Positions 26,246 to 40,505 of a DNA stretch of 55,818 nucleotides are shown here, piece by piece (position 1 is the first letter of the stretch; every line of letters starts with the position of its first letter). The position numbers and the translations under genes are program-made. The notes under the pieces were generated by a model, which was not told where the DNA came from, ran no database searches, and worked only from the letters and a program-made list of their open reading frames with translations. Source of the DNA: Deltaproteobacteria bacterium. Lineage in GTDB: Bacteria > Desulfobacterota > Dissulfuribacteria > Dissulfuribacterales > QOAL01. The stretch spans positions 1 to 55,818 of the forward strand of contig JALXCD010000095.1 of the NCBI GenBank assembly GCA_026991135.1. The letters are read 5' to 3'.

Positions 26246-28330
26246 ATGACTAGTTCCACTTACAGCATTTGTGGCATGTGTGCAGTTCGCTGCCCCATCC
26301 GGGTCGAGGTAAGGGACGGCGAAGTAACCTGGATCGAGGGGAATTCAAATGATCCAGGTATGGGGACAAGCCTTTGTGCAAAGGGGATAGCGGGAAGGGC
26401 CCTTCTTTACGACCATGAAAGGCTCCAGTATCCCATGATAAGGGATGGTGAAAGGGGATCGGGTAAATGGAAGCAGGTCTCCTGGGATGAAGCCTATGAT
26501 TATATAACGTCTAAGTTAAAAGATATTATGGCCAAACATGGTGGCAAGGCAATAATGTTGAGTGACAGGGGTGGCCCCTTTGCCGATATGAGGAAGGCAT
26601 TTTTAAAGGCCCTAGGATCTCCAAACTACTGTAACCATGACTGCACTTGCGGCAGAAATACCCACCATGCTTCAAAATCTGTCTATGGACTGGGAAGGAC
26701 CGGCCTTGGCTATGATTTTAAAAATGCCAAACATATTGTCCTTTTTGGAAGGAATATGGTTGAGTCTTTTAAGGTCAAGGAAGTAAAGGCCTTCATGCAG
26801 GCAGTCAAAAATGGGGCCAAGGTCACATACATTGATCCAAGGGCTGCCCTTACCGCATCAAAATCCACAAGATACTGGCAGATAAGACCGGGAACGGACT
26901 ATGCCCTTCTTCTTTCCATGGTAAATGTCATCCTCAAAAGAGGCCTTTATGATAAGCAGTTCGTTAAAAAGTACGTAACAGGTCTTTCCGAGCTTAACAA
27001 GTTCATATCCGGTTACACGCCAAAATGGGCCGAGAAAGAAACTGGTATCCCAGCAGACGAAATCGTTCAGTTCTGTAAGGAAGTATCTGCCGATAAGCCC
27101 CATGTTATCTTTCATCCAGGCTGGCATCTTTCAAGATATACGGACTCCTTTTACGCAAGCAGGATGATTCATATCCTTAACTGCCTTATGGGTAATATAG
27201 AGGTCCCGGGGGGCCAATTTTTCCCAAAGACACCAAAGGATGCCGGCTATAAAGGGCTTAAAAGCCTTGGAGCAGATATTCCAAAGGTTGATGAAAAAAG
27301 GGCTGATGGCTGCGGATGGAAATACAAGAGATTTGACGGGGGGCCGGGCCTTTTGCAACTTATGTATGAAGTAATAGATACGGGTGAACCCTATCCGGTC
27401 AAGGCCTATTTCATTGTAAGGCATGATCCCCTTTTGGCCATGCCTGATCCAGAAGAGCAAAAGCGCATTTTGAACAAACTAGATCTTATTGTGGTGGTGG
27501 ATGTCAATTACAGCGAAAGCTTTGGCTTTGCCGATGTGGTTCTGCCTGAAAGCACCTATCTTGAACGGGACACCATAATGAGGACGGACAAGGGCTTAAA
27601 GCCAGGTTTCAGCCGCAGGAAAAAGGCAATAGAGCCAATTTATGACACAAAAGCAGGCTGGCAGATATGGACCGAACTGGCTCAGCGGCTTGGAAAGGGA
27701 GAGTATTTTCCCTATAAATCCATTGAGGATATCTGGAATTATCAGCTTCAAGATACCGGACTAAAAATTGAGGACTTTGAGGAAAAGGGCTTTGTTCAGC
27801 TTTCATCAAAACCCATCTGGTATGACCGGGATAAGTTAAAATTTCCTACAGAATCAGGGAAAATAGAATTTGTTTCCAAGAAGTTTGAAGAAGAAGGCAT
27901 CCCTTCCTTTAAGCCATACGAACCCCCAAAAAAGCCTTCTGAAGGCGAATTCAGGCTTCTTTTTGGAAGAACCGGGTACCAGACACACGGCCAGACCACC
28001 AACAATCCAATAATTTCTGAACTGATGGGCACAAACTGTCTCTGGATAAACAAAGAGGCAGCAGAAAGGCTCGGAATCAGTGACGGCCAGGAGGTCGAAT
28101 TGGTCAATAATGGAATATCCGGAAAGATTACGGCGAGACTTACCGATTTTATCCACCCAGAAGCAGTTTTCATGCTCCATGGGTATGGACGAACCATCCC
28201 ATTTCAAACAAGGGCATACAAGAAAGGCCTGGCCGATCAGGCCTTTATGAAGGGCCTTTTAAAGGTGTGGGACAAGGCAGGCGGCAGCATTGCCCTTTGT
28301 GAATCCTTTGTGAAAGTGATGCCTGCATAA
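26246..28330 (+). CDS. Cytoplasmic Mo/W-bisPGD oxidoreductase catalytic subunit (PsrA/PhsA-like)
   Basis: N-terminal CGMCAVRC...LCAKG Fe-S motif beginning at residue 9; no twin-arginine leader; NHDCTC ligand region; ADVVLPESTYLER; AAGGAG RBS. Confidence 0.88.
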   Translation: MTSSTYSICGMCAVRCPIRVEVRDGEVTWIEGNSNDPGMGTSLCAKGIAGRALLYDHERLQYPMIRDGERGSGKWKQVSWDEAYDYITSKLKDIMAKHGGKAIMLSDRGGPFADMRKAFLKALGSPNYCNHDCTCGRNTHHASKSVYGLGRTGLGYDFKNAKHIVLFGRNMVESFKVKEVKAFMQAVKNGAKVTYIDPRAALTASKSTRYWQIRPGTDYALLLSMVNVILKRGLYDKQFVKKYVTGLSELNKFISGYTPKWAEKETGIPADEIVQFCKEVSADKPHVIFHPGWHLSRYTDSFYASRMIHILNCLMGNIEVPGGQFFPKTPKDAGYKGLKSLGADIPKVDEKRADGCGWKYKRFDGGPGLLQLMYEVIDTGEPYPVKAYFIVRHDPLLAMPDPEEQKRILNKLDLIVVVDVNYSESFGFADVVLPESTYLERDTIMRTDKGLKPGFSRRKKAIEPIYDTKAGWQIWTELAQRLGKGEYFPYKSIEDIWNYQLQDTGLKIEDFEEKGFVQLSSKPIWYDRDKLKFPTESGKIEFVSKKFEEEGIPSFKPYEPPKKPSEGEFRLLFGRTGYQTHGQTTNNPIISELMGTNCLWINKEAAERLGISDGQEVELVNNGISGKITARLTDFIHPEAVFMLHGYGRTIPFQTRAYKKGLADQAFMKGLLKVWDKAGGSIALCESFVKVMPA

Positions 28331-28344
28331 GGGAGGAATGAACA

Positions 28345-28848
28345 ATGAGTAACTATTTTGTAGAACAAGATTTGACCCTTTGCATAGGCTGCCTGGCATG
28401 TGAAGCAGCCTGTAAGGATAAAAACTCCGTTCCTGAAGGGGCCTTTTACTGCAAAATGATCCCCGTTGGCCCCAGAATGATCGGGAACATACCGGTGGTC
28501 CAGCACGTCTATATGGCCTGTTTTCACTGCGAAAGGCCCTGGTGCGTGGATGCCTGCCCGACCGGGGCCATGCAAAGGCGCCCAGAAGACGGAATAGTCT
28601 TTGTTGAGGAAGACCTTTGTGTCGGCTGCAAGGCCTGCATGAAGGCATGTCCCTGGGGAGTTCCTCAGTGGAACGCGGACACAGGAAAGGTAGGCAAGTG
28701 CGACCTTTGCAAGGACCGCGTTGACCAAGGACTTTCTCCGGCCTGTGTCACCAAATGCACAACCGGGGCCCTCAAGTTCGTGACTCCCGGGGAAGCATCT
28801 CTAAAACGGCGCAAGGAGTTTGCAGAAGAAATGGTCAAGGGGGCATAG
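28345..28848 (+). CDS. 4x[4Fe-4S] electron-transfer subunit (PsrB/DmsB/NrfC-like)
   Basis: CIGCLACEAAC, CFHCERPWCVDAC, CVGCKACMKAC, CDLC...PACVTKC. Confidence 0.92.
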   Translation: MSNYFVEQDLTLCIGCLACEAACKDKNSVPEGAFYCKMIPVGPRMIGNIPVVQHVYMACFHCERPWCVDACPTGAMQRRPEDGIVFVEEDLCVGCKACMKACPWGVPQWNADTGKVGKCDLCKDRVDQGLSPACVTKCTTGALKFVTPGEASLKRRKEFAEEMVKGA

Positions 28849-28856
28849 GAAGCATC

Positions 28857-29234
28857 ATGAGGCCAGGAACCTACATCCCCACAGACTATTTACCCGTGCT
28901 AATAATGCTGATTTTTGCCACTGGCTTTGGGGCTGTGACCCTGTGGATCGGGCGATTCTTCAGGCTTTCAAGGCCCTATAGGGAAAAACTTGTTGCTTAT
29001 GAATCCGGCAACCCCCCAACCAAGGCCCCCAGGTTCAGGTTTTCAATCAAGTTCTATCTCATAGCCATATTGTTCGTGGTCTTTGATGTTGAGGCCATAT
29101 TTCTCTATCCGTGGGCCTTGGTCTATGACAGGATAGGACTTTTTGCCGTCATCGAGATGTTTCTTTTCATTTTCCTGTTGCTGGTTGGTTACCTTTATGC
29201 ATGGAGAAAGGAGGCCCTGGAGTGGGAAGACTAA
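28857..29234 (+). CDS. nuoA: Complex I subunit A
   Basis: YESG loop, FYLIAILFVVFDVEAIFLYPW, ALEW. ATG 28857 is 8 nt after the Fe-S subunit stop. Confidence 0.95.
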   Translation: MRPGTYIPTDYLPVLIMLIFATGFGAVTLWIGRFFRLSRPYREKLVAYESGNPPTKAPRFRFSIKFYLIAILFVVFDVEAIFLYPWALVYDRIGLFAVIEMFLFIFLLLVGYLYAWRKEALEWED

Positions 29235-29743
29235 CTACTTCTGACCTTGTAAAGGTCGGCCCCGGGCTCAAGGTAATTCCTGGGGCAAATACGCTGCTGG
29301 TCAGTCTTAACAGGATTGTAAACTGGTCAAGGGCAGGCTCTATCTGGCCTGTAACCTTTGGCCTTGCCTGATGTGCCATAGAGATGATGGCTGCTGGAAG
29401 CAGCCACCACGACCTAGACCGTTTCGGAATAATCTTCAGGGCCAGTCCGAGACAGGCAGATGCCATGATAGTTGCCGGAACGGTCACTCAGAAAATGGCC
29501 CCTGTTGTAAGGCGGGTCTATGATCAGATGCCTGAGCCAAGATATGTGATAGCAATGGGCAGTTGCGCATGTTCTGGCGGGGTGTTCAGGACCTATCATA
29601 CAGTTCAGGGGGCCGATGACTTTATCCCTGTGGATATCTATGTGCCGGGTTGCCCGCCAAGGCCAGAGGCGCTTCTTGAAGGGTTTATCCGGCTTCAGGA
29701 AAAGATAAACAAGGAGGAGTTGCGGTGGAGCCGTTGGAGATAG
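29222..29743 (+). CDS. nuoB: Complex I subunit B with in-frame TGA (codon 50), probable selenocysteine
   Basis: AAGGAGG (29208-29214) then GTG 29222. Frame reads ...[19 protein letters not shown](29369-29371)-CAIEMM..., canonical GLACCAIE. GSCA and VPGCPPRPE are intact downstream. Confidence 0.88.
29388..29406 (+). promoter_or_regulatory. Putative bacterial SECIS hairpin in nuoB
   Basis: TGGCTGCT-GGA-AGCAGCCA: perfect 8-bp stem starting after a 16-nt spacer from the UGA, with a G-first apical loop 25 nt from the UGA. Confidence 0.75.
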
Positions 29744-30315
29744 CAGAGCTTTTAAAACAAAGGTTTCCAGGTCAGGTTATTGAAATAAAAGAATTTCGAG
29801 ATCAGGTGGGAGTCCTGCTGAAAAAGGGTCAGATACTGGATATTTGCAGATGGCTGCATGATGATTCAAGGCTCCAGTTCAATCACCTGGCTGATCTTTG
29901 TGGCGTGGATTACCTGGGGAAAAGGGACTGCCGATTTGAGGTAGTCTATAACCTCTATTCCATCCCCTTGAGACATTGGATTCGCCTTAGGGCCCAGGTT
30001 CCAGAAGAAGACTGCAAGATTGATTCGGTCACCTCCATCTGGATGGGTGCAAACTGGCATGAAAGGGAGTGCTACGACCTTTTTGGTATAGAGTTTATTG
30101 GCCATCCAGACCTTAAAAGGATATTGCTGCCCGAAGGCTGGGAAGGCCATCCCCTTAGAAAGGACTATCCGCTGGATGGAGGTGGAAAGAACTGGTCAGG
30201 GTACGAAGAAATTCGTAACAAGACCAAAGACCTTAGACAGTATGATTTTTACGGGAATTATCCTGACCCAACCAAGGTAAACGAGTTGAAAGATGTTGAA
30301 GGAAAAGATGGATAG
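29725..30315 (+). CDS. nuoC: Complex I subunit C
   Basis: [38 protein letters not shown]. Confidence 0.95.
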
Positions 30316-31507
30316 TAACGAGAGTGCTGCCAGGGCCTTTGAGCCCTACGAAATCCAGATGGGTCCACAGCACCCTGCAACCCACGGAGTGCTCAAGCTG
30401 GACCTCGAACTTGATGGAGAGACCGTGATCGGTTGCAAGCCCACGGTTGGTTTTTTGCACAGGGGAGTGGAAAAGCTTTCTGAAAACCTGACCTATGCCC
30501 AGACACTGCCCCTGACCGACAGGCTCGACTACATCGCTTCCATGGCCAACAATGTAGTTTACAGCAATGCCGTTGAAACGCTTCTCGGGATAGAAGTGCC
30601 TGAGCGGGCAAAATTCATTCGCACCATGGTCATGGAAATGGCAAGGATCACAGGACATCTCCTGTGGCTTGCAACACACGCACTGGACATCGGCGCCATG
30701 ACTGTTTTCCTCTATTGCTTCAGGGAAAGGGAACAGCTTCTGGACCTTTTTGAAGAGGTATGCGGGGCACGTCTTACCACGTCATATACCTGCATCGGAG
30801 GGGTGCGCCAGGATGTTACGGGCCACTTTCTGGAAACCCTCCATAAATTTACGGAAGAGTTTCCATCAAGGGTCAGGGAGTATGAAACCCTGATTGACCA
30901 GAATCGAATATGGCTTAAAAGGACCCAGGGGGTTGGGATTGTATCTGCGGAGGATGCTGTAAGCCTTGGACTTACAGGTCCGTCTTTAAGGGCATCTGGA
31001 GTTGATTATGACGTAAGAAAACACCTTCCCTTTGATGCCTATTCGGAAGTGGAATTTGAGGTCCCAATAGGGAAACGGGGCGATGTTTATGACAGATACC
31101 GGTGCAGGATGGAGGAACTGCTCCAGTCAAACGGCATAATCAGGCAGTGCATTGAGAAACTTCCTCCTGGACCCATAAAGGCCGACGACGCACCAGATCT
31201 GGTTATGCCCCTTAGCAAAAAATGTGTTTTGGCAGACGCAACCTTGACAAGCGGAGTCATAAAATTGGTCGAAGACCGTAAACACTATATGGAAGGGGAT
31301 GTCTATGTCTCCGGGGAATGTCCAAAGGGAGAACTGGGCTTTTATTTTGTGAGTGACGGGAAGGGAAGGCCCTACAGGATGCATATCAGATCGCCCTCCT
31401 ATATCCATATCGGGGCCTTGCCTTTTCTTTGTAAGGGTCAGATGGTGGCAGACGTTATTGCCATCATAGGAAGCCTAGACGTGGTTCTCGGAGAATGTGA
31501 CAGGTAA
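30308..31507 (+). CDS. nuoD: Complex I subunit D (start 30293 or 30308)
   Basis: [24 protein letters not shown]-terminal [11 protein letters not shown]; no NiFe CxxC motifs. Confidence 0.96.
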
Positions 31508-31520
31508 TGGTGAGGGATAG

Positions 31521-32489
31521 ATGGAAATTTTGTGGATAATTCTGAAAATTGTAATTGTCTTTGCCGTATTGATGGTCCATGTGATGTATGCGACCTATTT
31601 TGAACGAAAGGTCATAGGTCACATGCAGGTCAGGATGGGACCGATGCGCGTGGGGCCCCACGGTATCCTTCAGCCCATTGCTGATGGTCTTAAGCTCTTT
31701 TTCAAGGAGGATGTCGTCCCTGAACAGGTGGACAAAAGGGTCTTTTATATAGCCCCGCTGATTTGCCTGATATCGGCCCTCAGTGCAGTTGCAGTTGTCC
31801 CTTTCTTTAAGGGTTTTGCAATAGCCAACATCAATATTGGCCTTTTGTATATCTTTGCCATGAGTTCTCTTGCCGCCTACGGAGTAGTCCTTGCAGGCTG
31901 GTCATCCAATTCGAAGTATCCGTTCCTTGGGGGGCTCAGGGCCTCTGCACAGGTAATCAGCTACGAGATAGCCATGGGGCTAAGTCTTGTGGGAGTAATG
32001 ATGATGGCAGGCTCCCTGAACCTAACAGATATAGTCATGGCACAGTCCAGGAGCCCCTTCAAAATCTATCTAATCCCGCAATTCATCGGCTTTTTTGTCT
32101 TTTTGATCGCCATGTTTGCAGAGACCAACAGGACACCCTTTGACCTTCCAGAGGCAGAGCCTGAGCTTGTGGCTGGCTACTGCACCGAATATAGCGGAAT
32201 GAGATTTGCGCTATTTTTCATGGCCGAATACATCGGCATGATAGTGATGTCCTGTGTGGGGGTGGTCTGTTTTCTTGGAGGCTGGAATGGCCCATTTGAT
32301 GTCCCAGGCATTCCCTTTTTCTGGTTTATACTCAAGGTCTATCTTTTCATCTTTCTCTATTACTGGGTAAGGGCCACTCTTCCCAGATACAGATACGATC
32401 AACTCATGGCCCTTGGCTGGAAGGTTCTTATTCCACTGGCCCTTTTCAACATTTTGCTTACAGGCACCATGAAATCCATTTTGGGGTAA
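31521..32489 (+). CDS. nuoH: Complex I subunit H
   Basis: ERKVIG, QPIADGLKL, AQVISYE, RTPFDLPEAE, RYRYDQL. Confidence 0.97.
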   Translation: MEILWIILKIVIVFAVLMVHVMYATYFERKVIGHMQVRMGPMRVGPHGILQPIADGLKLFFKEDVVPEQVDKRVFYIAPLICLISALSAVAVVPFFKGFAIANINIGLLYIFAMSSLAAYGVVLAGWSSNSKYPFLGGLRASAQVISYEIAMGLSLVGVMMMAGSLNLTDIVMAQSRSPFKIYLIPQFIGFFVFLIAMFAETNRTPFDLPEAEPELVAGYCTEYSGMRFALFFMAEYIGMIVMSCVGVVCFLGGWNGPFDVPGIPFFWFILKVYLFIFLYYWVRATLPRYRYDQLMALGWKVLIPLALFNILLTGTMKSILG

Positions 32490-32501
32490 AAGGCAGGGAT
32501 T

Positions 32502-33152
32502 ATGGAAATACGTTACAAGACAAAAAAAGGATTACTGGAAAACATTCTTTTGCTCGAGATATTAAAGGGTCTGGGTCTTACCCTAAAAAGGCTTTTTTCA
32601 AGGTCTGTTACTATCCAGTATCCAAATGAGCGAAAGCCGCTTTTCCCGGGGTTTAGGGGAAAACATGCCCTCATAAGGGACCCTGTAACAGGCGATGCAA
32701 AGTGTGTTGCCTGCATGAGATGTGCATCAGTATGTCCAGCAAGGTGTATAACCATACGATTTGAAAGGGATGAAGAGACAAATGCAAGAAGGCTTACCAA
32801 GTACGAGATAGATTCATTGCGGTGCATTTTTTGCGGGTATTGTGAAGAGGTCTGCCCAGTAAATGCCCTGGTCCTGACAGAAGAATATGAATACTCGGGC
32901 TACACCAGGACTCCGTTTCTTTTTGACAAAGAAGGGCTTCTCAGGAACTGGGACGAATTTTTGGAGAAAAACCGTCTGGATGAAAAAAGATATCTCAATC
33001 CCTTTATGCGCCCTAGAGGGATTTCCGTTAAAGAGCTTCCTTCAGGAAAGAGGATTGATGTTCCAAAAGAGTGGACTCTTGAAGGCCAGGTGATCTGGAG
33101 AAACGGAAAGGCTGAAAGCGTTTCTGCCAGGGAGATATCCAGGGAGGAATAA
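32502..33152 (+). CDS. nuoI: Complex I subunit I with long C-terminal extension
   Basis: TIQYP, FRG, CVACMRCASVCP and CIFCGYCEEVCP. Confidence 0.95.
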   Translation: MEIRYKTKKGLLENILLLEILKGLGLTLKRLFSRSVTIQYPNERKPLFPGFRGKHALIRDPVTGDAKCVACMRCASVCPARCITIRFERDEETNARRLTKYEIDSLRCIFCGYCEEVCPVNALVLTEEYEYSGYTRTPFLFDKEGLLRNWDEFLEKNRLDEKRYLNPFMRPRGISVKELPSGKRIDVPKEWTLEGQVIWRNGKAESVSAREISREE

Positions 33153-33674
33153 ATGGTCTATCTTTTATTTTTTTACTTTTCCATTGTGGTTATAGGCCTT
33201 GCCTATAAGGTAATTTCGGCAAAAAACCCGGTTCATGGCGTGCTTACCATGCTTGCCCTCTTTTTCCACATGGCAGGCTTCTATCTTCTTTTAAATGCCG
33301 AGTTTTTGGCCGCCGTCCAGGTAATTGTCTATTGCGGTGCCATACTGGTTCTCTATCTCTTCGTGCTCTTTCTGGTTGACATAAAGAGCGAGGTTAAAAC
33401 AGGTCCTTTTATAAAAAATGGCGCAAAACTCGCCATACTTAGCTCCATTCTGTTGCTTTTGACCTTTCTAAGGGGTGTCAAGAACTTCAGCCTTGGCCCC
33501 CACGGCCATTTTACAATTGAAAGGGTGCAGGAAATTACCCATACCAAGGCCATTGGGCAGGAGGTCTTCACCACCTACATACTGCCCTTTGAGATTGCGG
33601 GCCTGATACTTCTTGTGGCTGTTATTGGGGGTCTTGCCCTGGCCAAAAGGGAAGCTGAAGGAAAGGAGGGCTGA
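33153..33674 (+). CDS. nuoJ: Complex I subunit J
   Basis: NPVHG, AEFLAAVQVIVYCGAI, YILPFE. Confidence 0.94.
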   Translation: MVYLLFFYFSIVVIGLAYKVISAKNPVHGVLTMLALFFHMAGFYLLLNAEFLAAVQVIVYCGAILVLYLFVLFLVDIKSEVKTGPFIKNGAKLAILSSILLLLTFLRGVKNFSLGPHGHFTIERVQEITHTKAIGQEVFTTYILPFEIAGLILLVAVIGGLALAKREAEGKEG

Positions 33675-33677
33675 AAA

Positions 33678-33980
33678 ATGGTGCATCTAAGCTGGTACAT
33701 GACGGTTTCTGCCATCCTTTTTTCCATGGGCGTCTTTGGTTTTTTGACAAGGCGAAACCTCATAATGATGCTTCTTTGCATTGAGCTCATGCTAAATGCC
33801 ATAAATCTCAATCTCGTGGCCATTAGCCACTACATGGAAGATATGAGGGGACAGGTCCTTGTATTTTTCATTATTGCCGTCGCAGCAGCAGAGGCAGCTA
33901 TAGGCCTTGGTCTTATAGTTACCCTTTTCCGAAACGTAAAAAGCGTTTACACAGAAGACCTCACTACCCTGAAAGGATAG
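33678..33980 (+). CDS. nuoK: Complex I subunit K
   Basis: RRNL, IELMLNA, AAAEAAIGL. Confidence 0.96.
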   Translation: MVHLSWYMTVSAILFSMGVFGFLTRRNLIMMLLCIELMLNAINLNLVAISHYMEDMRGQVLVFFIIAVAAAEAAIGLGLIVTLFRNVKSVYTEDLTTLKG

Positions 33981-33984
33981 AGCC

Positions 33985-35904
33985 ATGAGTATCCCTGTTT
34001 TCATTCTCTTGATACCTTTCCTTCCCCTGGTATCCTTCGTATTTACAATCCTTTTTGGTAAAAGGTTCGGAGAAAAGGCTCACTGGCCTCCAATAATAGC
34101 GGTTTTTGCCTCCCTTTTTTGTGCACTTATTGCCTTTAACAAGGTGCTTCACGGGTTTCATCTAAACGAGGACCTTTACGTATGGTTTTCGTCTGGGCAC
34201 TTCAAGGCATCTGTAGGGTTTTTAGTGGACGAGCTAACCGCTGTTATGCTCATAGTTGTTACAAGTGTCAGTGCCCTGGTTCATGTGTATTCTGTGGGCT
34301 ACATGCACGGAGATACAGGTTACTACAGGTTTTTTTCCTATCTGAGCCTTTTCACCTTCTCCATGCTCATGCTGGTACTTGGCAACAATTTTTTACAACT
34401 GTATTTCGGCTGGGAGGCCGTGGGCCTTTCTTCATACCTTTTGATTGGTTTCTGGTTTGAGAAAAAGTCCGCCTCTGATGCGGGCAAGAAAGCATTTATC
34501 GTTAACAGGTTCGGGGATTTTGGATTTGGCCTTGGGATTTTCGTGGTTTTCCTGACCTTTGGATCCGTCCATTATGCCGATGTCTTTTCCCAGGTGAGTC
34601 AGGCAGTTGGAAAGGGCTTTGATTTCTTAGGGTTTCGTGTTGACGTTATAACCCTGATGGCAGTACTTCTTTTTTGCGGTGCTGTTGGAAAATCTGCCCA
34701 GATCCCGCTTCACGTCTGGCTTCCTGATGCAATGGAGGGCCCCACTCCTGTCAGTGCCCTTATACACGCGGCAACCATGGTCACTGCCGGTGTCTTTCTG
34801 GTTGCAAGGTGTCACCCAATTTACGATTTGTCACCCTTTGCCCTAAATTTGATAACCATAATAGGGGCTCTTACATGCCTTTTTGCCGCAACAATAGCCC
34901 TTGTCCAGGTGGATATAAAAAGGGTTATTGCATACTCCACAATCAGCCAGCTTGCCTACATGTTCATCGGTTGCGGCGTAAAGGCATATGGAGCAGGGAT
35001 TTTTCACCTCTTTACCCATGCCTATTTTAAGGCCCTCCTATTTTTGGGGGCTGGAAGCGTGATACATGCCATGAGTGACGAGCAGGATATTAGAAAGATG
35101 GGAGGGCTTAAAAGCTATCTTCCCATTACCTATTTCACCTTCCTCCTGGCATCCCTGTCAATCTCTGGGATTCCTGGCTTTGCCGGCTTTTTCAGCAAGG
35201 ATGAAATCCTTGCCATGGCCTTTGCTTCACCGGTTGGCGCAGGAAAAGTTGCCTGGTTTATAGGAACTGTTGTGGCAGGAATGACCGCCTTTTATTCATT
35301 CAGGCTCTTTTTTCTCACCTTTCATGGTGAATTCAGGGGGACAGATGAGCAAAGGCGCAAGCTTCATGAATCTCCCTTTTCAATGGCAATACCCCTGTCC
35401 CTCCTGGCCATTGGCTCTGTGGTTGCCGGCTGGGTAGGAGTGCCAGAGGTCCTTGGAGGTGAAAATGGCTGGGCCGAGTTTATCGGAAGGTGCCTTGGTC
35501 ATCCACATGCCCACCTTTCTCATTCAGTTGAGTGGACCTTGATGATCATATCGGTTGCCGCTGGCGTAACCGGGATTTACCTGGCCTATCTCATGTACCT
35601 GAAGAGGCCAGAACTGCCTGTTTCCCTTTATGAAAAATTTCCGCGTGTCTATGAATGGCTATTTAACAAATACTATGTGGATGAATTTTATGGCTGGCTG
35701 ATAGTCCAGCCCACCATAAGATGCGGCCGCTATGTCTTGAGAGGCTTTACAGACGGAAAGATAATCGAGGGCATTGTAAACGGTATCCCAAGGTTGATTG
35801 GAAAGTGCAGCAGCGGTCTTTCCGGGTTTCAGACCGGAAGGGTCCAGCAATATGCGGGAGTTATGGCCATTGGCGCATTTATTTTGCTTCTTTTTTTCAT
35901 GTAA
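33985..35904 (+). CDS. nuoL: Complex I antiporter-like subunit L
   Basis: WEAVG, GKSAQIPLHVWLPDAMEGPTPVSALIHAATMV, GFFSKD; full length (639 aa). Confidence 0.97.
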   Translation: MSIPVFILLIPFLPLVSFVFTILFGKRFGEKAHWPPIIAVFASLFCALIAFNKVLHGFHLNEDLYVWFSSGHFKASVGFLVDELTAVMLIVVTSVSALVHVYSVGYMHGDTGYYRFFSYLSLFTFSMLMLVLGNNFLQLYFGWEAVGLSSYLLIGFWFEKKSASDAGKKAFIVNRFGDFGFGLGIFVVFLTFGSVHYADVFSQVSQAVGKGFDFLGFRVDVITLMAVLLFCGAVGKSAQIPLHVWLPDAMEGPTPVSALIHAATMVTAGVFLVARCHPIYDLSPFALNLITIIGALTCLFAATIALVQVDIKRVIAYSTISQLAYMFIGCGVKAYGAGIFHLFTHAYFKALLFLGAGSVIHAMSDEQDIRKMGGLKSYLPITYFTFLLASLSISGIPGFAGFFSKDEILAMAFASPVGAGKVAWFIGTVVAGMTAFYSFRLFFLTFHGEFRGTDEQRRKLHESPFSMAIPLSLLAIGSVVAGWVGVPEVLGGENGWAEFIGRCLGHPHAHLSHSVEWTLMIISVAAGVTGIYLAYLMYLKRPELPVSLYEKFPRVYEWLFNKYYVDEFYGWLIVQPTIRCGRYVLRGFTDGKIIEGIVNGIPRLIGKCSSGLSGFQTGRVQQYAGVMAIGAFILLLFFM

Positions 35905-35928
35905 TTAAGAGGGGAGGAATTGTTTCAA

Positions 35929-37464
35929 ATGGAATATGGATTTCCAATACTTAGTTCCCTGATTTTTCTGCCAATTATTGGCGCAATAGGCATCCTGTTC
36001 ATACCCAGGAAGGAAGAGCTGGAGGTAAAAAGGTTTGCCCTACTGGTTGCAGTGCTGGAATTTTTCCTTTCCCTTCCACTCTGGTTTGGATTTGACAAGG
36101 CAACCCACTTGATGCAGTTCGTGGAAAAGAGGGAATGGATTTCCTCTTGGAATGTCCAATATTACCTGGGAATCGATGGAATAAGCGTTCTTTTTATTCT
36201 TCTTTCCACCCTTATCACCATCTTGTGCATCCTGGTTTCCTGGACTGCAATCACAGATAAAATAAAGGAGTTTTTTGCAGCCCTCCTCTTCTTGGAAGGG
36301 GTGATGATAGGGGTTTTTTGCGCCCTTGACTTTTTCCTCTTTTACATATTCTGGGAGGCCATGCTGATCCCCATGTACCTGATTATTGGCGTATGGGGCG
36401 GCCCTGGAAGGCTTTACGCCACAATAAAATTCTTTCTCTATACACTTATTGGAAGTCTTTTGATGCTGGTAGGGATAATAATGCTCTATCTCAAGGGCGG
36501 GCACACCTTTGATATTTTGAAACTGGCATCAAACAATTATGACTTTAAATTCCAGATGATTCTTTTCTGGACCTTTTTTGCCGCCTTTGCAGTCAAGGTT
36601 CCCATGTGGCCGGTCCACACCTGGCTTCCGGATGCACACACAGAGGCTCCGGCAGCAGGCTCGGTCATTCTTGCCGGCATTTTGATCAAGATGGGGGCAT
36701 ACGGATTCTTGCGGTTTTCCATGCCAATTTGCCCGCAGGCAACCCAGGCAATGATGGTCCCAATGCTTGTCCTTTCAGTCATTGCCATAATCTACGGGGC
36801 TGTAATCTGCCTGGGCCAGGATGATATGAAAAGGCTCATTGCCTATAGCTCTGTAAGCCACATGGGCTTTGTCACCCTAGGCATCTTTGCCCTAAATTAC
36901 CAGGGCCTTGAAGGCGCAATTCTCCAGATGATAAATCACGGGGTGGTTACGGGGGCATTATTTCTTTCCGTGGGTATCATATATGAACAAACCCATACCA
37001 GGGAGATCTCAGATTACGGCGGACTTGCAACCGTAACCCCGATATTTGCCGGCTTTTTCCTGGTCTTTACCCTGGCATCAATAGGCTTTCCAAGCCTCAA
37101 CGGGTTTGTTGGTGAATTTCTGATACTCCTGGGCGGTTTTGCGGCAAAGACATGGGCAGGTTTTTTGGGAGCCACAGGAATAATAATTGGAGCAGGATAC
37201 ATGTTATGGCTCTATCAAAGGGTATTTTTCATGAAGGTGAATGAAAAGGTGGCAGGTGTGCGTGATATAAATTTACGGGAGATCATTACCCTTCTTCCAA
37301 TGCTCATCTTGATCTTCTGGATAGGTATATTTCCAAATAACTTTTTAAGCTACATGCATGTGTCTGTTACCCACCTGCTGGATCAGGTAAATCAAAATTC
37401 CGGCCTTGTGCAGACAGGCCCCCAGGCATTTTTGGAAACTGCTATAAGGCTCATAGGAGGTTAG
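35929..37464 (+). CDS. nuoM: Complex I antiporter-like subunit M
   Basis: FYIFWE, KVPMWPVHTWLPDAHTEAP, AYSSVSHMG, FVGEF. ATG 35929 follows GGAGG. Confidence 0.97.
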   Translation: MEYGFPILSSLIFLPIIGAIGILFIPRKEELEVKRFALLVAVLEFFLSLPLWFGFDKATHLMQFVEKREWISSWNVQYYLGIDGISVLFILLSTLITILCILVSWTAITDKIKEFFAALLFLEGVMIGVFCALDFFLFYIFWEAMLIPMYLIIGVWGGPGRLYATIKFFLYTLIGSLLMLVGIIMLYLKGGHTFDILKLASNNYDFKFQMILFWTFFAAFAVKVPMWPVHTWLPDAHTEAPAAGSVILAGILIKMGAYGFLRFSMPICPQATQAMMVPMLVLSVIAIIYGAVICLGQDDMKRLIAYSSVSHMGFVTLGIFALNYQGLEGAILQMINHGVVTGALFLSVGIIYEQTHTREISDYGGLATVTPIFAGFFLVFTLASIGFPSLNGFVGEFLILLGGFAAKTWAGFLGATGIIIGAGYMLWLYQRVFFMKVNEKVAGVRDINLREIITLLPMLILIFWIGIFPNNFLSYMHVSVTHLLDQVNQNSGLVQTGPQAFLETAIRLIGG

Positions 37465-37471
37465 AACCAAG

Positions 37472-38908
37472 ATGTCAAATACCTTCCTTTTCCCGGTTGT
37501 TTCACCCTTAGGCCCTGAGATTTTCCTGGCAGCCGTTGCCTGCTGCCTGGTAATATTTGACTCCCTTTTCAAGGAGCAAAGAAACATTTTTCCGGTAATT
37601 TCCATTACAGGCGCAACTGTTACCACCTTAATGGTTGCAAGCTCCAAGGGGCTTGGTTTTTCCGGAATGTATAACGTGGATGGCTTCAGTGTCTTTTTTA
37701 AGATTATATGTCTTCTTGCCCTGATCTTTACCGTCCTGATGTCCCACAATCATTTGAAGGTTCTCGGTGTTAAAAGGGAAGGAGAATATTACAGCCTCAT
37801 GCTTTTTGCCTGTATAGGCATGATGGTAATGGCCTCTGCCCTTGATCTTATTGTTCTCTATCTTGGCCTGGAACTTATGGCCCTTAGCGTATATTGCCTG
37901 GTTGGAATTCAGAAAAAGGACAAAAGGGCAAGCGAGGCTGCCATAAAATATTTTTTACTTGGGGCCTTTGCATCATGCCTTTTTTTATTCGGGCTTTCCT
38001 ATATCTATGGTGCTACAGGCACAACATCGTTACCGGTGGTAACCAGTTTTTTGACAGGTGAAGGCATTAAATCAAATCCGGCCTTTTTGCTAGGTCTTGG
38101 CCTTGTACTGATTGCCTTTTCCTTTAAGGTGGCTGCCGCGCCATTTCACATGTGGACCCCGGATGCATACGAGGGCGCAATGACGCCGGTAACCGGCTTC
38201 ATGTCAGTTGCTCCAAAGGCAGCCGGGTTTGCAGCCCTTTCAAGGCTTCTGTTCGAGGCCTTTCCCGCACTTCATGGCAACTGGGTATTGCCTTTTGAGA
38301 TAATGATCTTTTTGACCATGGCCATTGGGAATATTACTGCCATTAGCCAGGTTTCCATAAAAAGGATGCTTGCCTATTCGTCCATTGCACATGCAGGCTA
38401 TGCCCTTTTGGGCCTTCTGCCCGGGACTGCCCAGGGTGTTTCCGCCACCATGAACTACCTTTTCATTTATCTTTTCATGAATATGGGCGCCTTTGCGGTA
38501 ATAGTTCTTTTGCAGCAGAAGGGACTGGCAGGTGAAAGGCTTGAAGATTACAAGGGGCTTGCAAAAAGCCATCCTGTTGCAGCAGGGCTCATGCTTGTCT
38601 TCATGTTTTCCCTAACTGGCATTCCGCCAACAGCAGGCTTTATTGGCAAGTTCAACTTGTTCGTGGCCGCCTTAAATGCCGGTTATACAGGCATGGTGAT
38701 CTGGGCAGTGATCTTTAGCGCAATCTCGGCATATTTTTACCTGAGGGTTGTGATGCTCATGTACATGCACGAGCCTCAAAAAGAGGTGGCCATTGTACGC
38801 TCAGGTGCGCTCTCGGCTGTTCTTGTCATGACCCTTGCAGGCGTTTTGATCATTGGGATTTATCCCAATGATCTTTTGCACCTTGCAGGCATGATCTTTG
38901 GCAAGTAA
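37472..38908 (+). CDS. nuoN: Complex I antiporter-like subunit N
   Basis: EAAIKYF, FKVAAAPFHMWTPDAYEGA, KRMLAYSSIAHAG, GIPPTAGF. Confidence 0.97.
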   Translation: MSNTFLFPVVSPLGPEIFLAAVACCLVIFDSLFKEQRNIFPVISITGATVTTLMVASSKGLGFSGMYNVDGFSVFFKIICLLALIFTVLMSHNHLKVLGVKREGEYYSLMLFACIGMMVMASALDLIVLYLGLELMALSVYCLVGIQKKDKRASEAAIKYFLLGAFASCLFLFGLSYIYGATGTTSLPVVTSFLTGEGIKSNPAFLLGLGLVLIAFSFKVAAAPFHMWTPDAYEGAMTPVTGFMSVAPKAAGFAALSRLLFEAFPALHGNWVLPFEIMIFLTMAIGNITAISQVSIKRMLAYSSIAHAGYALLGLLPGTAQGVSATMNYLFIYLFMNMGAFAVIVLLQQKGLAGERLEDYKGLAKSHPVAAGLMLVFMFSLTGIPPTAGFIGKFNLFVAALNAGYTGMVIWAVIFSAISAYFYLRVVMLMYMHEPQKEVAIVRSGALSAVLVMTLAGVLIIGIYPNDLLHLAGMIFGK

Positions 38909-38918
38909 AAAAGCGTTT

Positions 38919-40505
38919 TTATCCTTCTAGAACCCTTCTACATGCCCTGGCAAAGTCTTCAGGGAAGTGACCGGTTATCCACCTTCCCTGCTGCTCGCTG
39001 AAGGCCCCAGGGGATTGGGGATGTTTTGGCAAAAAGGAGTACATGAGCCTTTGGTCAGAGCTTGAAAAGAACCTTTTTGAAATTTCAAAGGAGGTTATCA
39101 TCCTTGCTCCAAGTCCTGCCAGTGCCCTTACTGCCTTTAATATGGCCAGATCAATGCTCCTTCTTGTATCAAGGTCTGCTTCAAGTATGTTTCCTACAGG
39201 TTTAAGGCACAAAAGCTGTAATTCCCCTTGAGAACGCTGGGCCTTTGGCGCAAAAAGTATCACATTTTCATCCCTAAAGACTGTCAATTCACCGCTGATG
39301 TCACTTCTTTCATCAATCCTTTTGTTGGATTCTATTGCCCTTATAAGACAGGTAAAAAAGGAACGGCCAAATTCTTTTTTGTATTGGGTGGTAAACGCCT
39401 CTACACTATCTCCTATCGCATAGGTGGGGAACTCATTTCTTGATGAAATCTCAAGGGATGTATCCGGTATGAGGGCAAATTGCTGATGTATCTGCTGGTG
39501 GGATGCATTGAGTCTAAATCCCGAGGGGCTGAAATCATAGCCAAAGTTCCAGCCCCAAAGGGTTGCACTGAATCTAAGATCCTTTTTTGCTTTTCCTCCC
39601 TTTATTTCTTCCAGAATCTTTAATCTAATCTCTTCAAGCTCCTTTTCCGAAAAAAGCCCCCTTTTTTTCAGATTATTCCCAAGCTCCACAAGAAGGGTAG
39701 TGAATATCCTCTGGTAATAAAGGTGCCTAAGCCCCCTTATATCCTTTTCATCAAGCGTATCTACAGAATATCTTACAGCATCCTGGGCCATATTGGCAGC
39801 AAAATGCCCCCAGGGTATATAGCTATTGGCCCTTAGATATTCCCAGATGTGACCCCTTTTCTTGTCAATGAATTCTCCTACAATTGGGCTTAATCCTTGG
39901 ATGCCAGGGTTTAAAAGGAGAAGTCTTTTAAGATAATCGGGCAGAAAGGGATTGTTGCCCAGTGTTTCATAAAGGTCGTGGTCAAGTATCCTTGGCCTGA
40001 CCCTTCCATTTTCATCACTTTCATATTTTAGACCTGTGATTTTCCCTTTTCTGTCCCGCATAAATTCAGCACAGAGGGGCAAAAGTTTTTTCAGTATCCT
40101 CGGGTCCTTACAGGTTTGTGCAATTGCTAGGATAACTGGGCGTGGGATGTCTTTTATATCAAGTTTAAAAAACTCATCCCAATTTTCAAAATTGCACTCC
40201 CCTTTTGGTTCAAAACTTATTGGAATATCCCTTTTTGAATTTTCCCTGGCAATATCTCCAAGAATAAATGTGGCCCCCAAGAATGGAAAGGCATTTGGTA
40301 TTTCAAAGATGGGCTGTGCCTTGTCAACATGGATATCTCCCTTTGGGAAATTGGCAAGGTTTTGAACCATACTTCCATCTTCCAACTGTCCAAGGTCTAA
40401 AACTGTTTCGTTCAGCCTGTGGTTTAGAACGTGATAGCTTGGAAGGTGGCATGAGACCAAAAAGTATCCGTCAGGGTGTACGCAGGTTTTGACCAGTCGG
40501 TTCAA
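38919..40505 (-). CDS. Hypothetical protein, possibly GalT/HIT-superfamily nucleotidyl transferase/hydrolase
   Basis: 528-aa ORF; TTG start with AAGGAGG RBS; WNFG...NASHQQIHQQ resembles GalT-type GAS..HxHxQ; FAPKAQR..GE resembles the second GalT half. Confidence 0.55.
   Translation of the reverse strand: MNRLVKTCVHPDGYFLVSCHLPSYHVLNHRLNETVLDLGQLEDGSMVQNLANFPKGDIHVDKAQPIFEIPNAFPFLGATFILGDIARENSKRDIPISFEPKGECNFENWDEFFKLDIKDIPRPVILAIAQTCKDPRILKKLLPLCAEFMRDRKGKITGLKYESDENGRVRPRILDHDLYETLGNNPFLPDYLKRLLLLNPGIQGLSPIVGEFIDKKRGHIWEYLRANSYIPWGHFAANMAQDAVRYSVDTLDEKDIRGLRHLYYQRIFTTLLVELGNNLKKRGLFSEKELEEIRLKILEEIKGGKAKKDLRFSATLWGWNFGYDFSPSGFRLNASHQQIHQQFALIPDTSLEISSRNEFPTYAIGDSVEAFTTQYKKEFGRSFFTCLIRAIESNKRIDERSDISGELTVFRDENVILFAPKAQRSQGELQLLCLKPVGNILEADLDTRRSIDLAILKAVRALAGLGARMITSFEISKRFFSSSDQRLMYSFLPKHPQSPGAFSEQQGRWITGHFPEDFARACRRVLEG

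Follow-up and report, generated by a model that had tools for sequence, protein, structure and literature searches.

Does a subunit of a complex I-type enzyme carry selenocysteine (Sec) as a ligand of cluster N2? The question is raised by the nuoB gene in a contig of 55,818 nucleotides (JALXCD010000095.1 of assembly GCA_026991135.1; hereafter the window, meaning the whole of this stretch) from a Deltaproteobacteria bacterium of the order Dissulfuribacterales, in which an in-frame TGA takes the place of the first of two adjacent Cys codons. Quinone receives its electrons from N2, and the unusual ligation of this cluster by a tandem Cys pair, together with its pH-dependent potential, has long been at the heart of the debate on how redox chemistry is coupled to proton pumping in complex I. 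We conclude that nuoB, at positions 29222-29743 of the window, is very probably a selenoprotein gene. The anatomy of this gene, the selenium machinery of the genome, the alternation of Sec and Cys codons among homologues and a conserved hairpin 3' of the UGA are direct observations on the DNA, and it is these that carry the conclusion.

The nuoB reading frame and its in-frame UGA

Frame reading and profile matches define nuoB as a coding sequence of 173 codons plus TAG (29222-29743, + strand; TAG at 29741-29743), the sole interruption of which is the TGA at codon 50 (29369-29371). The start is a GTG (29222-29224) that overlaps the 3' end of nuoA and lies seven bases 3' of a ribosome-binding site, AAAGGAGG (29207-29214). 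Translation could also begin at an in-frame ATG (29201), and the fact that annotated Cys homologues begin at the equivalent MGK.../VG... position supports the GTG. When translation table 11 is applied, the list of open reading frames (ORFs) splits the gene into pieces of 56 residues (29201-29371) and 119 residues (29384-29743); reading TGA as U gives a protein of 173 residues and about 19 kDa with one non-standard residue, U50, within the sequence GLA-U-CAIEMM. This protein scores 248.9 bits with NF005012 (cut-off 116), 238.1 bits with TIGR01957 (142.7) and 111.4 bits with PF01058 (27), and it matches the corresponding chains of solved complex I structures (NDUFS7, Nqo6 and NuoB from mitochondria, Thermus, E. 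coli and mycobacteria) with E values of 1e-55 to 1e-63. Hydrogenase small-subunit models give only 19-30 bits against cut-offs of 180-660, which places the protein outside the [NiFe]-hydrogenase small subunits. On the basis of these matches the predicted product is unambiguously a NuoB.

Residues 24-167 of the window protein align to residues 59-203 of Yarrowia NUKM, with a one-residue insertion following query position 123, and the alignment offset places U50, C51, C115 and C144 on C85, C86, C150 and C180, respectively. Passages of a study of the Yarrowia enzyme identify these four cysteines as the N2 ligands, and describe the tandem pair as strained, with C85 being the more mobile member and lying near the quinone-ligating tyrosine of NDUFS2 (PMC8042128). 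From this mapping and the published ligands, therefore, the TGA (29369-29371, + strand) coincides with the first of the tandem cysteines and hence with the first N2 ligand. The four-ligand pattern of a tandem pair and two single cysteines is thus present in the window NuoB, with the first ligand predicted to be Sec rather than Cys. The original prediction, which was made from the letters of the window, had read the frame from GTG 29222 with its ribosome-binding site, interrupted only by TGA and started at 29384 in the ORF list, and all of these coordinates hold; its placement of the TGA at the first Cys of a GLACCAIE motif, and hence at the first N2 ligand, is confirmed by the offset mapping to NUKM C85. 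The third N2 ligand lies in a GSCACSGG sequence (29564-29572, residues 115-117) that has an extra Cys two residues further on. This extra Cys is common to the Sec and Cys members of the lineage to which the window belongs, and is absent from part of a second Sec lineage, described below, in which the sequence is GSCASSGG.

The source genome (2.32 Mb in 164 contigs, 97% complete) contains all four of the genes selA, selB, selC and selD for which the original prediction had proposed to look. SelA scores 542.6 bits, the SECIS-binding wing domain of SelB is found in a 665-residue frame (SECIS being the selenocysteine insertion sequence), there is one tRNA-Sec, and SelD, at 363.3 bits, has a single in-frame TGA of its own. 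Including selD, six other genes with a single TGA encode selenoproteins in this genome, namely two FdhA, two HdrA, one MvhD and SelD, in each of which the TGA is at the known Sec position and is followed by a hairpin. These genes are located on contigs C29, C62, C152 and C12, three of them being clustered on C29. TGA is nevertheless a normal stop codon in this organism, terminating 222 of the 1037 open frames of at least 300 codons, among them nuoJ of the same operon, and a genome-wide reassignment of TGA was rejected for this reason. A sequencing or assembly error was likewise rejected, because the TGA is present in 28 other genomes and in contigs assembled from four other public runs (three studies), in which TGA 29369-29371 and the hairpin are unchanged and the differences lie at the synonymous positions 29362, 29374 and 29380. 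One further run, the probable source of the DNA, was left out of this comparison. Taken together, error and reassignment have a probability that we regard as negligible. The proposal that the TGA should be sought in sequencing reads is borne out to the extent that the codon recurs in independent assemblies, although these are contigs and not raw reads.

Sec/Cys alternation and the hairpin downstream of the UGA

Within the order to which the source organism belongs, 16 of 69 species genomes contain an orthologue of the window NuoB at a threshold of E <= 1e-60; the codon is TGA in 14 of them, among which are the genus's 10 other genomes, and TGC or TGT in the other two. In an even sample of 401 genomes from the phylum, a single TGA was flagged in 19 of the 150 matches listed, and in all 19 cases it lies at this codon; this number of TGA genomes is a lower bound, as 304 further matches lie outside the 150. 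Across 155 NuoB loci, TGA is found at the same codon in 29 and TGT or TGC in 126, which is the alternation that the original prediction had hoped to see in homologous genes. The 29 TGA carriers are species-level genomes (28 besides the source genome), and SelA is found in 28 of the 29. The genome of one carrier, G439, consists of a single 2.32-Mb contig and may come from an isolate. Both genomes with a Cys orthologue also have SelA, so that loss of the machinery does not account for Cys in these organisms. Cys orthologues are 73-83% identical to the Sec forms in the window lineage and 93-95% identical in the second lineage, and the TGA itself has been retained over a protein divergence of at least 16%.

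A scan of metagenomes with the degenerate motif F-G-L-A-TGA-C-A-x-E-M returned at least 120 contigs. All 80 of the contigs that were fetched are in frame and have no other stop between codons -25 and +117 relative to the TGA, 76 of them spanning the whole of this stretch, and they encode 28 different downstream peptides. Full-length database proteins close to either Sec lineage all have Cys, and the Sec forms are represented there by truncated pieces, such as P0184, a call of 128 residues on the very contig of genome G189. The best 80 related loci in genome contigs comprise Cys forms only, labelled Nitrospirae or Nitrospiraceae, and give no evidence on distribution. TGA flags in two genomes (G012 and G016) and TAG flags in two others (G033 and G039) were discarded, being stops located upstream of the start of a Cys paralogue and not in NuoB. 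Judged by these homologues, Sec-NuoB appears to be widespread and common in anaerobic bacteria.

Criteria of the bSECISearch type look for a stem-loop shortly 3' of the UGA with a G early in the apical loop, and the structure downstream of the nuoB UGA is of this kind. The core hairpin, UGGCUGCU-GGA-AGCAGCCA, is a perfect 8-bp stem (29388-29406, + strand) that begins 16 nt past the TGA, as the original prediction had described. Its GGA loop (29396-29398) begins 24 nt past the UGA, and two outer pairs (29385-86/29408-09) extend the predicted fold to 29385-29409. The 33-nt stretch 29381-29413 has a folding energy of -13.6 kcal/mol (z = -4.15), and none of 200 dinucleotide shuffles is as stable. 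All 14 TGA orthologues of the order have the stem, which measures 7 bp in genome G060 and 8 bp in the remaining 13; beyond this, two orthologues contain a G-U wobble, the loop of one is GGC, and there is no other variation. In both Cys orthologues the stem is destroyed by the use of other codons for the same or nearly the same amino acids; in related genomes, therefore, the TGA and the hairpin are kept together, and the hairpin is lost from the closest Cys genes. Moreover, codons 56-62 have the lowest synonymous diversity among the 166 seven-codon windows of nuoB (0.114 versus 0.516 elsewhere). The second most synonymously frozen part of the gene is the 19-base overlap of nuoB with nuoC (29725-29743). 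The hairpin in the genome's own selD gene, located 15 nt past the UGA, consists of a 6-bp stem capped by a GGG triloop and resembles the canonical SelD SECIS printed in PMC13326102, so that the NuoB hairpin fits the local style.

Support of another kind is provided by the second Sec lineage (13 genomes, with the peptide ...CALEM[MI]V...), in which there is a hairpin of different sequence that starts one base later. Pair 21-39 has changed from GC to CG in four rows of this alignment and pair 24-36 from CG to UA in two rows, while a further pair shows a wobble change; 81% of the cells are paired, compared to 25-45% when the partner columns are slid, and none of 500 shuffles reaches the observed covariation score. 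The stem covariation for which the original prediction had suggested looking is therefore seen as compensatory change in the second lineage, but only as conservation in the lineage of the window. Under a fixed rule (at least 6 pairs, a stem start 15-25 nt after U, and G within the first two loop bases), a hairpin is found in 66 of 73 distinct Sec sequences compared to 26 of 122 distinct Cys sequences, and in the seven Sec sequences that fail the script chose another stem. A synonymous-recoding test gives median p values of 0.07-0.09 for Sec genes versus 0.41 for Cys genes. The median minimum free energies of -12.6 (Sec) and -6.85 (Cys) kcal/mol point in the same direction, giving weak support that is confounded by GC content and relatedness. 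In the contig sets of other runs, the segment 29342-29412, which contains the TGA and the hairpin, has a summed depth of 190-420 compared to 14-50 in its flanks; many co-occurring relatives probably share this segment nearly unchanged.

These observations bear directly on the possibility that the TGA is a true stop, the locus being either a pseudogene or a gene split into a 49-residue peptide and a 119-residue protein that starts at ATG 29384. Such a reading matches table 11 and the behavior of gene callers, which report the 128-residue piece P0184 on a relative's contig, and the intact second nuo operon of this genome (see below) could supply the function. However, decay is difficult to reconcile with a stop that recurs at the same ligand codon in 29 genomes and in 80 or more metagenome contigs, none of which has a further disruption, and the C-terminal piece would be without two of the four N2 ligands. 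In addition, codons 41-49 of the 14 TGA orthologues specify one amino acid each while using 3-4 synonymous codons at degenerate positions. This pattern, unlike that of an untranslated leader ahead of ATG 29384, implies that the 49 codons upstream of the TGA are translated and constrained at the protein level, and the hairpin is constrained at synonymous sites. We therefore rejected the pseudogene or split gene on the pattern of conservation and synonymous change, and consider it very unlikely.

Somewhat less improbable, but still very unlikely, is read-through of the UGA in which a near-cognate or mischarged tRNA supplies Cys or Trp, as might happen when selenium is limiting, and the codon is not decoded, or not exclusively decoded, as Sec. 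The tRNA-Sec route can insert Cys when selenium is scarce, Cys is functional at this position in close relatives, and the present data do not discriminate between inserted residues. On the other hand, a hairpin of the SelB type has been retained with the appropriate spacing, and 28 of the 29 carriers have SelA; were Cys the product, a TGY codon would be simpler, yet TGA has persisted over the divergence given above.

Several results weigh against the assignment of Sec. SelA was not found in one TGA carrier, G006, the assembly of which is 90% complete. The wider 71-nt region around the window hairpin is not unusually stable (z = -0.57, with 59 of 200 shuffles equal or better), and comparison of this hairpin with synonymous recodings gives a marginal p value of 0.076, the peptide AAGSS partly predisposing to a hairpin; taken by itself this test is only suggestive. 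In the window lineage there is no pair in which both partners have changed, and every shuffle has a higher covariation score than the observed alignment. RNAalifold gave no consensus structure for 38 distinct codon-locked sequences because the stem registers differ between the lineages, and an Rfam scan of 29300-29480 returned no SECIS family, the only matches being unrelated, on the opposite strand and at chance level (E 0.31 and 4). The Rfam result carries little weight because bacterial SECIS elements are short and diverse. The compared genomes are also related to one another, so that the rank tests overstate significance, and the case for Sec in NuoB is made from DNA sequence. Nevertheless, the selenocysteine interpretation that was originally proposed is strongly supported by the machinery, by conservation of the TGA and by the hairpin.

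Operon context and evolutionary history

The operon of which nuoB is part has the order nuoA-B-C-D-H-I-J-K-L-M-N, all on the + strand. nuoA (PF00507; 28857-29234) is identified by Pfam, its start not being fixed since the ORF is open from 28755; nuoC (29725-30315) and nuoD (30293-31507) are identified by profile matches, nuoD matching Complex1_49kDa at 354.6 bits. NuoD and NuoB together form the N2/quinone pocket. The remaining genes, nuoH, I, J, K, L, M and N, occupy 31521-38908, and the operon contains no nuoE, nuoF or nuoG and thus no NADH module; NuoF (TIGR01959) was not found anywhere in the 97%-complete genome. From its gene content, the operon is predicted to encode an 11-subunit complex-I-like enzyme and not the canonical 14-subunit NADH:quinone oxidoreductase. 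Just past nuoN, a 528-residue ORF on the - strand (38919-40505) has no Pfam match at E <= 0.001.

Directly upstream of nuoA are two genes on the + strand that form a candidate module for electron input or output. The first (26246-28330) encodes a cytoplasmic PhsA/PsrA-like molybdopterin oxidoreductase, which begins directly at its 4Fe-4S domain and consequently has no twin-arginine translocation leader, and the second (28345-28848) encodes, on the basis of profile matches, a DmsB-like four-cluster 4Fe-4S protein that is the partner of the Mo enzyme. The five-gene order that includes the Mo enzyme and its Fe-S partner is seen at all 14 Sec orthologue loci, at the Cys locus of genome G043 and at several more distant Cys loci. 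This gene order makes it plausible that the Mo enzyme is the electron partner of the complex-I-like machine. A paralogous Mo oxidoreductase (55% identity) and Fe-S partner (53%) are located on another contig (C120:4013-6570), away from nuo genes. The genome also has a second 11-gene nuo operon (contig C67:23747-34052, part of which is covered by locus L007), whose NuoB has Cys and is 56% identical to the window NuoB. In the second Sec lineage, the one locus that was scanned with Pfam (genome G081; L185 9735-14475) has a NuoCD fusion and, between this and nuoH, two further proteins, one of which joins the C-terminal 4Fe-4S region of NuoF to a GltD-like flavoprotein while the other is NuoG-like. 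Sec-NuoB thus occurs with more than one type of input module. A similar NuoG-like match is present at L186 in genome G189.

We built a NuoB tree of 154 sequences and 141 columns from which the Sec column had been removed. The 13 sequences of the second lineage form an all-Sec clade in this tree (SH-aLRT 99, the Shimodaira-Hasegawa-like approximate likelihood ratio test), distant from the window clade and placed amid Cys NuoBs of many phyla. The window clade is surrounded by Cys sequences from its own phylum, and the tree neighbors of same-phylum genomes include contigs labelled Geobacteraceae, in conflict with the Nitrospirae and Nitrospiraceae labels of the Cys relatives mentioned above. A minimum of three Sec/Cys changes is needed on the tree, and Sec-NuoB would on this evidence have been gained or lost at least two times; we claim only this lower number because the tree is short and poorly resolved.

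Precedents and consequences of a selenium ligand at N2

Compared to NuoB, Nqo6, PSST and NDUFS7, the window protein is alike in its full-length match, the four ligand positions and the neighboring genes nuoA, C, D and H-N, and differs in the UGA at the first ligand, the lack of nuoEFG, the Mo-oxidoreductase pair before nuoA and the extra Cys. With the genes for FdhA, HdrA, MvhD/VhuD and SelD it shares a UGA at a metal-site or redox-site Cys, an intragenic downstream hairpin, close Cys orthologues and dependence on selA, selB, selC and selD. [NiFeSe] hydrogenases, including the group 4 Sec variants predicted in PMC13582414, are relatives of the Q-module that use Sec in similar anaerobes. In those enzymes, however, Sec is a Ni ligand located in the large subunit, whereas here it is predicted in the small-subunit homologue at a cluster of the proximal type. 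NuoB, Nuo and complex I gave no hits in the text of PMC13582414, in which the "small subunit" is mentioned in two passages, both purely on architecture.

The original prediction had left open how widely a Sec-containing NuoB might have been reported. Table 1 of PMC13188914 (May 2026), which is introduced there as the fullest catalogue of selenoprotein families in prokaryotes and comprises 119 families and subfamilies, including GenBank-annotated ones, has no entry for NuoB or the complex I 20-kDa subunit. The table of a 2022 review (PMC9312934), searched by term, contains no NuoB, and the sole entry that sounds like complex I is the NqrE/RnfE-type PF02508. Term searches in the main texts of the Global Ocean Sampling study, the 2006 comparative study, deep-Sep, BSepDB and the Haft preprint likewise gave no Sec-NuoB (texts searched by term: PMC2398784, PMC5109826, PMC5736913, PMC9312934, PMC13582414, PMC12013277, PMC13326102, PMC1794560 and 10.1101/2022.07.06.499078). 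No paper linking selenocysteine with NuoB was found in a full-text search of the open literature, which leaves subscription journals and supplementary family lists outside its scope, and the matches in NCBIfam release 20 include no NuoB model specific for Sec. Sec-NuoB is apparently undescribed. Replacement of Cys by Sec in an iron-sulfur binding motif has already been predicted in other families listed in Table 1 of PMC13188914, and a Se-ligated cluster is therefore not unprecedented as a prediction. Those families, however, are small or uncharacterised carriers, whereas the cluster in question here is N2 of an energy-converting complex, and its structure, spectroscopy and tandem-Cys geometry have received intensive study.

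If the standard bacterial pathway operates, a ribosome at UGA 29369-29371 would meet SelB with Sec-tRNA(Sec), which the hairpin (29388-29406) tethers to the mRNA, and Sec would then be inserted at residue 50. The mature NuoB would hold the [4Fe-4S] cluster N2 by one Se and three S ligands (U50; C51, C115 and C144). From the sequence features described above we infer Sec insertion, Se-Fe ligation and a possible effect on the potential of N2, on proton coupling or on robustness. The original prediction had also proposed that selenium could alter the redox behaviour of the cluster and that assembly of the complex might become selenium-dependent. Whether the exchange of Se for S is adaptive rather than neutral, with the U50 selenolate tuning N2, is a matter on which we can make only a tentative suggestion, and one that we consider more doubtful than not. 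Were it so, the selenolate might shift the N2 potential or ease reversible opening or protonation of the ligand upon reduction, with possible benefit for the use of low-potential quinones, for reverse electron flow or for life in sulfidic habitats. It is highly improbable that the U-C pair functions as a selenenylsulfide redox switch, whether instead of cluster ligation or besides it.

A core and universally annotated gene is systematically cut short by gene callers in these organisms, and the shortened nuoB calls distort reconstructions of metabolism, in which the gene may be entered as truncated or missing. If Sec is indeed inserted, NuoB would be the first selenoprotein subunit in a complex I-type enzyme, and selenium supply would be linked to the respiratory energy conservation of many anaerobes. 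The existence of Sec and Cys sister enzymes, together with a natural 77Se spectroscopic handle on N2, would then provide a means of testing the role of the tandem pair.

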